Shown: piece after piece, positions 30,666 to 34,133 of the stretch
Position numbering within the stretch: position 1 is the stretch's first letter
Layout: the number at the start of each line of letters is the position of its first letter
Source of the DNA: Candidatus Marinamargulisbacteria bacterium SCGC AG-343-D04
GTDB lineage: Bacteria; Margulisbacteria; Marinamargulisbacteria; GCA-2716485; GCA-002719695
Assembly: GCA_003265885.1 (NCBI GenBank)
Contig: QFBQ01000002.1
Span: forward strand, 2,358 to 66,357
Direction of reading: 5' to 3'
Length of the DNA stretch: 64,000 nt
Notes under the pieces: generated by a model
What the model was told of the DNA's origin: nothing
The model's database searches: none
The model's input: the letters and a program-made list of their open reading frames with translations, nothing else
Program-made: the position numbers and the translations under genes

Positions 30666-31502
30666 ATGTTAAATTTAAGTATGAATTATACTCTGAAATA
30701 TATTATTATCTTCTTAATCATCCTAATGATTTCGATTCAAAAACCAACTTTAATAATAGCTAAAAATGAAGGAGCGATTATTGGGGGATTATCTGGGTTT
30801 GTTCTAGTAAATTTTGGCAAAAACGTTTTTCGAGAACATTTTTGGAAAGAATCCTTTATTGGCATTCTTACAGGGGGTATTTCTGGGTCAATATTATATG
30901 ATAATCAGTTTGATTTAGATCCACTGGCGAAAGGAATGGTTCAAGCTGCGCCATATACAATGGGTGCAGGTCTTATTTATGGAAGTATTAATTCACTTAT
31001 GAATGATGGGCCTGTTTATGATGGGGCGATTAATGGAATCTCTTTTGGCGCAATTTTCCCAGGATCATTCACTGGAGGAGTTCTAGGTTATAGTGCAGGC
31101 ACAGTCTATTCATTAGCCAGACATGCAAAAATTGTGGAAAAACCTCAAGTAGGGTTTGCTTCAGCGGGGATGTTACTTGGAGGTGCTGGAACTTATATTT
31201 ACTCTGGAACGATAACATCGCTAGCGTTAGTAAAAAATATCAAAATAGGAGCATCCTTTGGTCATTTAACCTATTCATTTTGGAGCATTAAAAAAAGTTT
31301 AATGACTCTTCAGCCAGGTCCTGATTATAAAACACATTATGAGATCTCAGGCATTGCTCGAGATAAATTTACAGCAGGACCAGCCTTACTCATTGGCTTT
31401 GCCAAAGAATCTTATGATTATTTCCTTCAGGCAGGAAATCCAGAATTTAGAGACTTAAAAAATAATTGGAATGGGGTTTTTCGTCAAAAACGTTATTTTT
31501 GA
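30666..31502 (+). CDS. glycine-rich (glycine-zipper-like) membrane protein of unknown function
   Basis: 278 aa. It has an N-terminal hydrophobic segment YIIIFLIILMISI followed by several Gly/Ala/Ser-rich hydrophobic stretches (AIIGGLSGFVLV, GILTGGISGSILY, GAIFPGSFTGGVLGYSAG, SAGMLLGGAGTYIY). I recognise no family. Its last 95 nt are duplicated at 33976-34070. Confidence 0.5.
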   Translation: MLNLSMNYTLKYIIIFLIILMISIQKPTLIIAKNEGAIIGGLSGFVLVNFGKNVFREHFWKESFIGILTGGISGSILYDNQFDLDPLAKGMVQAAPYTMGAGLIYGSINSLMNDGPVYDGAINGISFGAIFPGSFTGGVLGYSAGTVYSLARHAKIVEKPQVGFASAGMLLGGAGTYIYSGTITSLALVKNIKIGASFGHLTYSFWSIKKSLMTLQPGPDYKTHYEISGIARDKFTAGPALLIGFAKESYDYFLQAGNPEFRDLKNNWNGVFRQKRYF

Positions 31503-31771
31503 TATTTCTTAAATTTCATGCTGTTTTTATATTTTTCAATATAAATTGCCAGATAGTCTATTATTGAAAACTACATTTTTTTCATTAATCGCTACTCTTT
31601 TTCATTTTTCTTTTCGTATTCAATTTATAAAATAATCTTACTATTTTTTTGTAGAAATCTATGAGTTTAGAAATCTTGTAAATAGCACTGCATTTACTTT
31701 CTGTGTATTTTTCAAAATAAAAATGAAATTTTTCATTTAATTAAAACGATAATAAGCTTAAAGGAGTATAA

Positions 31772-33952
31772 ATGCTATCTACAACAACTACTGTTTTGGT
31801 CAGTGGTTCTCGACTTTCCACTGTTAAAATTACAAAAGGTAACGGAGAAGAAGTGAAAGTTCCTCATGGATTTGATGTAACAGTCACAACATCGAGCGGT
31901 CAAAAACCGGAACAAACTATATCTCTAAGTTCTAGGGGGGTATTATCTACAGCTTTGCAACAAGAGCTTCATATATTTAATCCCAAAGAGCGTTTAAAAA
32001 AAGTATGTAACACAGTACATTATTTTTGGTGTGGAGCTCCATTAACAAACTACCCCTCTTATTTGAAAAATATTGCCGGTGTTTGCAAATTAAAAGGTAA
32101 TGAGGGCGTAACGTTATGGACTGATAACATAACTCCTCAAGTAACTCTTTTCTGCAAGAAAAATGGTATTAACTTGTGTCATTTAGGGGAATGTTTAGAT
32201 GTTTTGTTTTCAGCCCCTCCAGAACGTAATTTATCCTCGTTTAATAAATACTTAGACAGCTTGTATCCAGATGTTATAGATTCTTCTTTTCAAAATTTGC
32301 AAAAATCTGATTTTCAGTACTTACGAAAAATATATGAAGTAGAGGCTCATAAAATATCTCCTAATTATGCTCGTATGTCAGATATTGTTCGTCTTCTTTG
32401 TATGATACACTTTGCAGGAGTGTATTTGGATGCCGATGTTAAAGTGTTTAATCCTTCAAAAGCTAATTACCCTAACATATCAGAAGTTCAGTTTAATCAA
32501 ATATGTTCTGCAGAAGAACAACATTTTTATCATTCACACAATAATAATGACATTTTAGCAACTAGACTTAAGTATAATGTGACTTCCCTATTGTTTTTAA
32601 GCAAGATGGTACGATGTTTAAAGCAAAATAAGCATTCTCATTTTAGGTTTAGACCTAATGGGTATCTACAATTTCTAAAACCTGCCAAAGTCGACTATGT
32701 TATATACACTACTGGGCCTTATATATATGCAGGAGAGGTTCAGCCAAAAAACTCTTTTTTTATAGAAAGAATGAATAAAGATACTGACTGCTTATGGATA
32801 AAACCTAAGTCTAAATTTGTCAATTTTGTTCGCACCCCTAAAAATACAGAAGACATTGAAAGTCATCCTGCAAAATGGGAAGCTCTAATACTCGTTGATA
32901 TCGAAGCTCAATTAAATAAAAAAATGTCTATTTGGAGACTTCCACAAATTAATTTAGCAAAATATGAGCTAGTTTTAAGGCATTTTTCAGATGAAAATAA
33001 AAGGTCATTTTTTGAAAAGATGATGAAACACTCAAGGTGTTTTTTGCAACAACACGGTGTTCCTGATGGTTATCTTGATTTCTCTATTATTGATTATGAC
33101 TATTCTATGAATAAAGTTACAGATGACCCTAAATGTAAACTTCAACAGCTTATTTCAAAAGGTATATGCTTGAAATACAGGTTGATCAATGAAATGAATA
33201 GAGATCATTCAGAATTAACTCAAAAACTTCTATGTGAATTCTTAGAAGAAATCCCATCTTTTGATGTGTTGGAATTTGAAGCGCCTCTAGACAGTTTATC
33301 CTTTAAATTGATTTTTAATGATTATTATGAAAGATTGCTCTGTAAAGTGGTAAAATTACTTTTAAAATCAACTAGTATTGATGATGTAACAAAAAATTCA
33401 TACTTAGCAAGAATTTCAAAGCCTTTTTTTAAGTTGGACGCAATTGCATGTGCATGTATTCATAGTAAACACTTTGATTTTTCAAATACTATTCGAAAAA
33501 AATTTCCAGGAATATACAAACATAGTTTGGAGGTGGAAACTGTTTCTAGGTCATTATCTGATTGCTTAGATGATCTTCCTAAATCAAAACATGGTATTAA
33601 TTCAGCTGATTTAAATACTCAATTAATAGACGGTATAATTAAATCAGAACATGAAATAGTTGAAAAAGCAGGATTATTGAAACACTTAGGACCTTTTGAA
33701 TCAACTGATTTAATTCCTGTTATTATAGAGGCGGGATCTCTTTCAGATGTTGAAAAAGTAGGATTATTGAAAGACGTAGGACCTTTCGAATCAAAAGATT
33801 TAATTCCTGTTATTATGGAAGCTGAATCTCTTTCAGAGGATGAACAAGTGTCATTATTATGTGAACTTAATATTAATCAAGATGATCTAGAAAAATGTGG
33901 ATATGCGGATCGCTTTGACTATGAAACTTCATCAGACAGTGATGAAGATTAA
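31772..33952 (+). CDS. large-clostridial-toxin-like DXD glycosyltransferase (GT44-type), paralog A; candidate secreted effector
   Basis: 726 aa with RBS AAAGGAG 6 nt upstream. Motifs, in the order found in the TcdA/TcdB/Lgt catalytic core, are VHYFWCGAP, VTLWTDNITP, NYARMSDIVRLLCMIHFAGVYLDADV (SD..R ... Y.D.D), NNNDILAT and TTGPYIY. The N-terminal 60 aa are Thr/Ser/Val-rich. The C-terminal ~380 aa are unrecognised and include a 30-aa tandem repeat and an acidic tail. Confidence 0.75.
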   Translation: MLSTTTTVLVSGSRLSTVKITKGNGEEVKVPHGFDVTVTTSSGQKPEQTISLSSRGVLSTALQQELHIFNPKERLKKVCNTVHYFWCGAPLTNYPSYLKNIAGVCKLKGNEGVTLWTDNITPQVTLFCKKNGINLCHLGECLDVLFSAPPERNLSSFNKYLDSLYPDVIDSSFQNLQKSDFQYLRKIYEVEAHKISPNYARMSDIVRLLCMIHFAGVYLDADVKVFNPSKANYPNISEVQFNQICSAEEQHFYHSHNNNDILATRLKYNVTSLLFLSKMVRCLKQNKHSHFRFRPNGYLQFLKPAKVDYVIYTTGPYIYAGEVQPKNSFFIERMNKDTDCLWIKPKSKFVNFVRTPKNTEDIESHPAKWEALILVDIEAQLNKKMSIWRLPQINLAKYELVLRHFSDENKRSFFEKMMKHSRCFLQQHGVPDGYLDFSIIDYDYSMNKVTDDPKCKLQQLISKGICLKYRLINEMNRDHSELTQKLLCEFLEEIPSFDVLEFEAPLDSLSFKLIFNDYYERLLCKVVKLLLKSTSIDDVTKNSYLARISKPFFKLDAIACACIHSKHFDFSNTIRKKFPGIYKHSLEVETVSRSLSDCLDDLPKSKHGINSADLNTQLIDGIIKSEHEIVEKAGLLKHLGPFESTDLIPVIIEAGSLSDVEKVGLLKDVGPFESKDLIPVIMEAESLSEDEQVSLLCELNINQDDLEKCGYADRFDYETSSDSDED
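33659..33838 (+). repeat. in-frame 90-nt tandem repeat (2 full copies, partial third) inside paralog A
   Basis: 33659-33748 and 33749-33838 encode VEKAGLLKHLGPFESTDLIPVIIEAGSLSD and VEKVGLLKDVGPFESKDLIPVIMEAESLSE. A degenerate third start (DEQVSLLCEL) follows. Confidence 0.9.
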
Positions 33953-33975
33953 CACTAGGATGTTATCTACTTACT

Positions 33976-34070
33976 CTTATGATTAATTCTTTCAAGTAGG
34001 AAATCTAGAACTTAGAGATTTGAAAAATAATTGAAATGGGGTTTTTCGTCAACAACGTTATGTTTGAGAT
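33976..34070 (+). pseudogene. dead duplicate of the 3' end of gene 30666-31502 (tandem-duplication scar)
   Basis: My hand alignment of 33976-34070 with 31411-31505 gives 83/95 identical positions with no gaps. The copy carries in-frame stops at 33984-33986 (TAT to TAA) and 34032-34034 (TGG to TGA). Confidence 0.8.
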
Positions 34071-34133
34071 CGTGAAAACAAAGTGAATTTTTTTTCATTA
34101 GTAATACGATAACCTTATAAAAAGGTTTTTAAT

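Follow-up and report, generated by a model that had tools for sequence, protein, structure and literature searches.

The 64-kb stretch of DNA analysed here, referred to as the window (64,000 nucleotides of contig QFBQ01000002.1), derives from the single amplified genome of Candidatus Marinamargulisbacteria bacterium SCGC AG-343-D04. The Marinamargulisbacteria are a poorly known lineage that includes an intracellular animal symbiont (PMC6784892). Three genes are central to this account, mem (DID78_00540), A (DID78_00545) and B (DID78_00550), which code for a glycine-rich membrane protein and two DXD glycosyltransferases, and between A and B lies a short copy of the 3′ end of mem. A preliminary description of this DNA took this remnant for a duplication scar that shows how the glycosyltransferase pair arose. 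Here, we describe the two units, compare the apparent age of the remnant with that of the genes on either side of it, and weigh the processes that could account for the marked mismatch between them, among which we tentatively favour gene conversion from mem. The features of the two units, in window coordinates, are:

30666 to 31502, plus strand: mem, open reading frame (ORF) for a glycine-rich membrane protein of 278 aa (DID78_00540)
31410 to 31505, plus strand: repeat copy 1, the functional end of mem, with its last 30 codons, the stop codon and 3 nt
31506 to 31713, plus strand: extra segment of spacer 1, about 205 nt, AT-rich, directly abutting the end of the repeat
31714 to 31771, plus strand: upstream block 1, promoter-proximal and ribosome-binding site (RBS) region, homologous to the region before B
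31772 to 33952, plus strand: gene A, 726 aa (DID78_00545), DXD glycosyltransferase (PF04488) with the motif YLDADV
33659 to 33838, plus strand: in-frame 90-nt tandem repeat in gene A, 2 x 30 aa, units 79/90 identical
33953 to 33974, plus strand: tail, 22 nt from the stop codon of A to the remnant, with the junction at 33974/33975
33975 to 34070, plus strand: repeat copy 2 (the 'scar'), pseudogene fragment of the mem 3′ end
34071 to 34133, plus strand: spacer 2, equivalent to upstream block 2, with the RBS AAAGG before the TTG start codon of B
34134 to 36137, plus strand: gene B, 667 aa (DID78_00550), TTG start codon, DXD glycosyltransferase with the motif YLDTDV
36205 to 36242, plus strand: possible counterpart of the tail of A (TAACACTA...CTACTTAC), which would end unit 2

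The two copies of the repeat align without gaps and are identical at 84 of 96 positions (87.5%), and immediately outside both ends identity is at background (0–50% per 10 nt). The preliminary description had aligned 31411–31505 with 33976–34070 by hand, and its count of 83/95 without gaps is reproduced within the computed extent of 96 nt; the repeat was said to hold 31 codons plus the stop, which has to be amended to 30 codons, the stop and 3 nt, as mem ends at 31502. The two in-frame stops reported for copy 2, TAA at 33984–33986 and TGA at 34032–34034, were found at these positions, and the fragment is indeed dead. The element is matched only once in the window (blastn E=3e-30, next matches E>0.01), and only two repeats of at least 35 nt with at least 80% identity are present in the window, namely the 96-nt remnant and the 90-nt tandem repeat in gene A. 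Copy 2 is located 22 nt past the stop codon of A and 63 nt before the start codon of B, at the boundary of the paralogous units. A third copy was not found downstream of B (local alignment P=0.48), where a short nucleotide match at 36033–36052 merely reflects the shared peptide ELRDLKN. It is extremely improbable that the match reflects chance similarity, or an artefact of single-cell assembly after multiple displacement amplification (MDA) that merged two strains' versions of the locus. Chance is excluded by the E value given above. Chimeric junctions do occur in data from single amplified genomes such as this one; however, chimeric reads copy exactly and would not leave the 12 differences seen between the two copies, a long shared k-mer that could have led an assembler to a false join is absent from the junction, and the flanking synteny is intact.

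The 12 differences (element positions 12, 16, 21, 23, 32, 37, 45, 48, 60, 79, 88 and 94) amount in copy 2 to two nonsense, six missense and three synonymous changes, plus one past the stop codon. The 11 that fall in the 31 codon triplets, stop included, are distributed 4/2/5 over codon positions 1/2/3, and the longest identical run in the repeat is 18 nt, compared with 21.6 nt expected under uniform random scatter. For mem itself a single homologue, P0002, was found among 5.8 billion proteins; it is 45% identical, is carried on a 2.4-kb contig from sample 3300072015 of the Joint Genome Institute (JGI) and has a C-terminus (...DLKNNWNGVFRQ) identical to that of mem. With P0002 as outgroup, at least six of the eight missense and nonsense changes are derived in copy 2. 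The even spread over codon positions and the derived state of the changes in copy 2 show that copy 2 drifts neutrally while copy 1 is constrained: copy 1, the 3′ end of mem, is under strong protein-level constraint, and copy 2 is a neutrally drifting, non-functional pseudogene fragment.

A and B are true paralogues in tandem. Their proteins are between 42% (BLASTP, E=2e-154) and 45% (MAFFT) identical over about 650 residues, which is the overall figure to be set beside the approximately 50% previously given for the best-conserved domain. In a profile search of 1.84 billion representative proteins each was the sole close relative of the other, the next match (E=7e-28) covering the glycosyltransferase core only. 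Codon usage and the G+C content of third codon positions (GC3) of mem, A and B are host-like, deviating from the genes of the window by about one standard deviation at most. Together with the mutual relationship of A and B, this points to duplication within the lineage rather than separate imports; a foreign origin of A or B was also considered on compositional grounds and rejected, both genes having GC3 and codon scores typical of the window's genes. The duplication must be old. Estimates of synonymous divergence (dS) between A and B are 1.16 (LWL85), 1.76 (NG86) and 7.4 (maximum likelihood, ML), that is, saturated; the proportion of synonymous differences (pS) is 0.69, dS is at least 0.83 in every 50-codon window, and four-fold sites are 38% identical, compared with 40% expected at random from composition (n=94). 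Nonsynonymous divergence (dN) is 0.45–0.50 and dN/dS (omega) 0.06–0.39, and A and B are thus old and under purifying, not diversifying, selection. One of the explanations offered earlier for the well-preserved scar, a recent tandem duplication followed by very fast diversifying evolution of both glycosyltransferases, had the low protein identity (42–45%) beside the remnant in its favour. It is refuted by these figures, and we regard it as practically discarded, because protein-level selection cannot randomise silent sites, and the synonymous and four-fold sites are no more alike than expected by chance, with dS below 0.83 in no 50-codon window.

The remnant is far less diverged. Its F81 distance from the end of mem is 0.138 (95% confidence interval (CI) 0.07–0.25), whereas at four-fold sites A and B are no less than 1.16 apart, even when the upper confidence limit is taken for the identity of these sites. 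The match of 84/96 also stands well above the overall nucleotide identity of A and B (1085/1899, or 57%; Fisher P=4e-10) and above every ungapped 96-nt window of their coding alignment, the best of which reaches 73/96 (76%; P=0.06 against this hand-picked maximum). The earlier impression that the scar is more conserved than the coding regions is therefore borne out by computed alignment (d=0.14 against saturated synonymous sites). Uniform neutral divergence across the unit, the expectation for a single event, was not found, the values being 0.138 for the remnant and 1.2 to >7 for dS. As copy 1 is constrained, most changes have occurred on one lineage, and we infer that the remnant was identical to the end of mem at least about five times more recently than A and B split. 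This rules out a neutral relic of the separation of A and B, and the remnant must have been re-copied or created long after that split. A former coding second copy of mem, kept similar by protein-level selection alone, was considered as well and is ruled out, since third positions match in 25 of 30 codons, compared with approximately 16 expected when synonymous codons are redrawn (P=0.0002).

The preliminary description had also proposed purifying selection on the nucleotides of the scar, as a terminator, a regulatory site or leader, or a small RNA. High identity at a non-coding site is in keeping with this proposal, copy 1 can form a weak hairpin with a U-run at the mem stop codon, and the adjoining upstream block is conserved too. 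However, neither copy folds better than shuffled sequence (z of +0.3/+1.3 on the plus strand and −0.4/+0.8 on the minus strand), both hairpins of copy 1 and the U-run are disrupted in copy 2, no Rfam family was matched (nothing below E=0.26), a terminator scan and conserved-promoter prediction were negative at both copies, and promoter-like sites are not enriched (31 compared with 28.8 expected). In addition, the mismatches are evenly spread and leave no conserved core, the element has no common position relative to the genes, its distance to the start codon being 266 nt for A and 63 nt for B, and selection of this type would also demand constraint on the synonymous sites of mem. With all of these scans negative, the proposal is not upheld, and we consider it improbable.

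The remaining explanations depend on how the two units are built. Their parts occur in the same order: repeat, upstream block of about 58 nt, ORF and probably a short tail. The upstream blocks (31714–31771 and 34075–34132) agree at 43 of 58 ungapped positions (P=0.003–0.02 against shuffles), a score higher than that of all 166 AT-rich control windows scored against the rest of spacer 1. Homology of the extra 205 nt of spacer 1 to spacer 2 was not significant (P=0.47). Both results agree with the preliminary description, in which the final ~60 nt ahead of each start codon had been aligned and about 200 nt of the first spacer had been left without a counterpart. Downstream, the 25 nt from the stop codon of A to the junction align with 36205–36242 (P~0.005–0.009, with a scoring chosen post hoc), a segment that ends shortly before the region upstream of leuA conserved among relatives. 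Colinear units with a fragment of mem at their boundary form the architecture that tandem duplication predicts, and, with the paralogy of A and B, this argues for a tandem-duplication origin of the two units, in which the original duplicated unit may have included the whole mem gene. What had been claimed for the scar, that it shows how the pair arose by tandem duplication of a unit, therefore holds for the architecture, but not for the timing or the boundaries of the unit.

Spacer 1 also contains short internal repeats. The sequence TTTTTTTCATTA at 31576 is identical to 34089–34100, and TATTTTTCAATATAAA at 31530 resembles 31706; such motifs also occur near the start codons, and each repeat is of borderline significance (P~0.05). 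The extra segment may thus be an internal duplication of the promoter-proximal block.

The same geometry, an intact gene end followed by an insert and a displaced pseudogene fragment of that end, would be produced by site-specific integration, in which an element bearing A and a replacement mem 3′ end entered the end of mem and displaced the original. We judge this very unlikely. The 2.47-kb insert (31506–33974) holds gene A alone, with Pfam PF04488 as its only family and no further ORF of 50 aa or more, and has no integrase, recombinase or other mobile-element gene; moreover, A is a paralogue of the neighbouring B rather than foreign, and no relatives were detected in the viral contigs searched.

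Our preferred, though tentative, explanation is that A and B are old tandem paralogues whose junction remnant kept being overwritten from mem by gene conversion. In this model, an old tandem duplication would have produced two mem-proximal effector units, the ORFs of A and B would have diverged under selection until they were beyond recombination, and the junction copy of the mem end would have continued to be overwritten from the functional mem by non-reciprocal homologous recombination, a form of concerted evolution. What was overwritten at the junction may have been no more than the short fragment, or else a whole second mem of which only the last 96 nt survived a later truncation. Homogenisation would then have ceased, through this truncation, the ~205-nt indel beside copy 1 or the chance build-up of mismatches, and copy 2 would since have decayed neutrally by about 0.1 substitutions per site. 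At 12% divergence, and with its longest perfect run of 18 nt, it is now probably too diverged to recombine readily. The pattern is of the type left by gene conversion, that is, a sharply bounded patch of 87.5% identity inside far more diverged paralogous sequence. The patch ends 3 nt past the mem stop codon, exactly at the start of the ~205-nt indel of spacer 1, and a conversion tract would be blocked there because the indel begins at this point. The colinear upstream block and tail around the patch indicate that an old homologous frame in which conversion could take place existed.

Several points weigh against gene conversion. It would be demanding for conversion to uphold a tract of only 96 nt over a neutral time of more than one substitution per site, and the recombination that maintained it would also delete gene A. 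If a full second mem was involved, an extra truncation event is required, and no other trace of such a copy remains. The upstream block beside copy 2 is less similar to its counterpart than the remnant is (74% compared with 87.5%, Fisher P=0.05), so that the homogenised tract would have had to stop at the mem stop codon. The internal repeat of gene A (79/90) has the same divergence as the remnant, which hints at one recent burst of rearrangement and would fit a younger junction at least equally well. Finally, no other genome or metagenome contig with mem, A or B was found, and conversion is for this reason not directly demonstrable.

Gene conversion limited to the scar had been listed in the preliminary description and survives the tests above, but so does an explanation that was not listed. 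In this main rival, which we consider possible though unlikely, the junction is younger than the paralogues, and a later rearrangement inserted the mem 3′ end anew between the already diverged A and B. Two routes are possible. In the first, illegitimate or unequal recombination, possibly anchored by homology, joined mem-spacer 1-A and mem-spacer 2-B versions of the locus; scar, spacer 2 and B would then be the original mem-B arrangement, interrupted by the inserted mem 3′ end, spacer 1, A and tail, with mem near-identical in both versions. In the second, the segment from the mem 3′ end to A was recently re-duplicated, and the new copy of A was then lost imprecisely. In favour of a younger junction, the age of the remnant is at most about one fifth of that of the A/B split, and its decay is uniform, as after a single recent event; scar, spacer 2 and B also adjoin one another in the order of a compact mem-effector arrangement. 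Apart from the remnant, the one sizeable repeat of the 64 kb lies in the same 2.5 kb with the same divergence (79/90), and the island occupies a slot that is variable between relatives, as described below. The junction, CTACTTAC/TCTTATGATTAA, is similar to a sequence past the end of B, CTACTTAC/CGCTTAT-TTAA; the likeness, which is weak and was noticed post hoc, would suit microhomology joining. The first route, however, needs two versions of the locus with near-identical mem but saturated effector genes, which implies an ancient balanced polymorphism or conversion itself, and these haplotypes are unobserved. The second takes two events, with the deletion ending by coincidence 3 nt past the mem stop codon. 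Neither A nor B has a codon usage or GC3 that would signal recent import. As no related genome with mem, A and B was found, gene conversion and a younger junction are not separable from one genome.

The proteins encoded at the locus have few relatives. No Pfam or NCBIfam family was matched by mem. The NCBI annotation gives it a later start and 258 aa, leaving 30666–30725 in question; since P0002 aligns along the full 278 aa, hydrophobic N-terminus included, the longer ORF is more likely to be correct. Above the PF04488 (DXD glycosyltransferase sugar-binding region) cut-off of 23 bits, A scores 29.2 and B 30.6 bits, whereas for PF12919, the TcdA/TcdB catalytic domain, A reaches 15.7 bits against a threshold of 23.6 and B has no match. 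Distant relatives of A and B also match PF12919, and there are weak sequence matches in the PDB to Legionella SetA and an RTX-toxin glycosyltransferase (E=0.02). On these sequence similarities, 'toxin-like' or 'effector-like' is a reasonable lead for both proteins. Beyond the glycosyltransferase region, gene A codes for a long helical C-terminal part, and no relatives or domains were detected for the C-terminal ~350 residues of A and B. An AlphaFold model of A, based on an alignment of two sequences, was unusable (predicted local distance difference test (pLDDT) 40, predicted template modelling score (pTM) 0.25) and was not used for a fold search. The tandem repeat of gene A consists of units 33659–33748 and 33749–33838, with the 30-aa unit VEKAGLLKHLGPFESTDLIPVIIEAGSLSD. 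Between A and B there is no ORF of at least 50 aa, nor is there one on the same strand between B and leuA, and hence no cognate immunity gene.

A short motif, G-x(1,2)-E-x-x-D-L-[KI], is found in all three proteins. The window's stop-free stretches, 23,177 residues in all, contain it just four times, always in a C-terminal region: GNPEFRDLK in mem (31434), GPFESTDLI (33689) and GPFESKDLI (33779) in A, and GFELRDLK in B (36027). P0002 also has it, as GTPEWKDLK. The motif was noticed post hoc, with a chance for mem that we estimate at ~0.002, and could be a shared signal or interaction motif.

The setting of the locus differs among relatives. The island and its borders are:

30590 to 36254, strand not applicable: lineage-specific mem-A-B island, in a variable slot between xth and leuA
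29807 to 30589, minus strand: xth, left border of the slot
36325 to 37860: leuA, right border of the slot

In the nearest available genomes and contigs (L001, L002 and L081–L089), whose LeuA proteins are 72–77% identical, the synteny rpL25-nth-xth / leuA-leuB-... is retained and mem, A and B are absent. The slot is divergent-intergenic, and its content differs among these relatives: it spans ~110–210 nt and is effectively empty in L089 (964–1074) and L082 (1637–1846), is ~745 nt long with one ORF of 178 aa in L001 (9241–9985), L084 and L085, and extends over 5.6 kb in L002 (2505–8140), with unrelated ORFs without Pfam families. In the window it measures 5.7 kb and holds mem, A and B, which were seen solely in this Marinamargulisbacteria single-cell genome. 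The variable content of the slot, and the absence of the three genes from all of these relatives, identify the whole locus as a lineage-specific island. Wider searches gave the same picture: a profile of A and B had no match in genome contigs or viral contigs, the mem profile none in metagenome contigs or viral contigs, exact-sequence look-ups of mem, A and B returned no further contig, and word-based protein searches with the three returned proteins of the same genome and the single mem homologue, P0002, and nothing else.

Upstream of leuA, the region conserved in relatives begins at about 36255 in the window. An element within it (CTTTCTCTTTATAGATTTTATACTTAGGTTTATAAT) is present in L001 (9925–9960), L002 (8080–8115), L081, L086 and L088, with a recognisable counterpart at ~36258–36300 in the window, and is probably the leuA promoter or leader. 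The contig L001 (NZWE01000011.1) is titled 'Actinomycetota bacterium isolate NAT535'. Its nth, xth, leuA and leuB genes have the order, and 59–77% protein identity, common to AG-343-D04, L002 and L081–L089, and the Actinomycetota label is probably wrong.

In more general terms, a 'duplication scar' is not necessarily as old as the duplication of which it appears to be the trace, because parts of one duplicated unit can differ in apparent age when recombination keeps resetting some of them, and caution is needed when paralogues are dated by junction fragments. The orphan pair of toxin-like glycosyltransferases and the accompanying glycine-rich membrane protein may, in addition, interest those who seek new effector families.

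The locus can be compared with four kinds of known system. As in toxins of the TcdA/TcdB, SetA and Lgt type, A and B score above the PF04488 threshold and have a DXD motif; unlike in the TcdA/TcdB type, PF12919 is below threshold in A and absent in B, and no close family was found. In Escherichia coli K-12, icd and icdC flank the e14 prophage (and phage 21) (PMC13626634, citing Hill et al. 1989). There, as here, a segment is enclosed by the intact end of a gene and by a displaced pseudogene fragment of the C-terminus of the same gene, and recombination between the two would remove the insert. In contrast to e14, there are no integrase or phage genes here, and the 'insert' is one gene, a paralogue of the next, so that the origin was probably duplication and not integration of the e14 type.

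In orphan rhs-CT and cdiA-CT toxin modules, part of the conserved upstream gene is retained and serves as a handle for recombination, in Salmonella over 522 bp with 95% identity (PMC3967940). As in these orphan Rhs and contact-dependent inhibition (CDI) modules, an alternative, highly diverged toxin-like gene is preceded by a fragment of the upstream gene, which is conserved, and recombination between the direct repeats would delete the first module and move the second up to the upstream gene. The mem fragment differs in that it is not fused in frame to B, has the TAA and TGA stops and lies 63 nt away, and in that it is 96 nt long and 87.5% identical, compared with 522 bp at 95%. The putative handle is also the end of a separate upstream gene, not part of the main gene as in Rhs/CDI, and no immunity gene follows A or B. 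That the end of mem is kept before each glycosyltransferase gene as such a handle, for the switching of toxin-like cassettes, is quite improbable in our view. If it were so, recombination between the mem 3′ end and its downstream copy would delete A and put B behind mem, and the G-x(1,2)-E-x-x-D-L-[KI] motif would mark a functional link between the mem, A and B proteins.

The closest likeness to the preferred explanation is to tandem segmental duplication with a junction fragment combined with concerted evolution, as in bacterial tuf and rrn copies: colinear paralogous units, with a gene fragment at their join, are present here too. Unlike in concerted evolution of the tuf/rrn type, the homogenised patch is just 96 nt, is non-coding in the acceptor and is inferred from one genome. 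It shares with these systems a sharply bounded patch that is more similar than the rest, with a functional donor and a decaying acceptor, and the locus is in this respect a new instance of a familiar trace of genome rearrangement.

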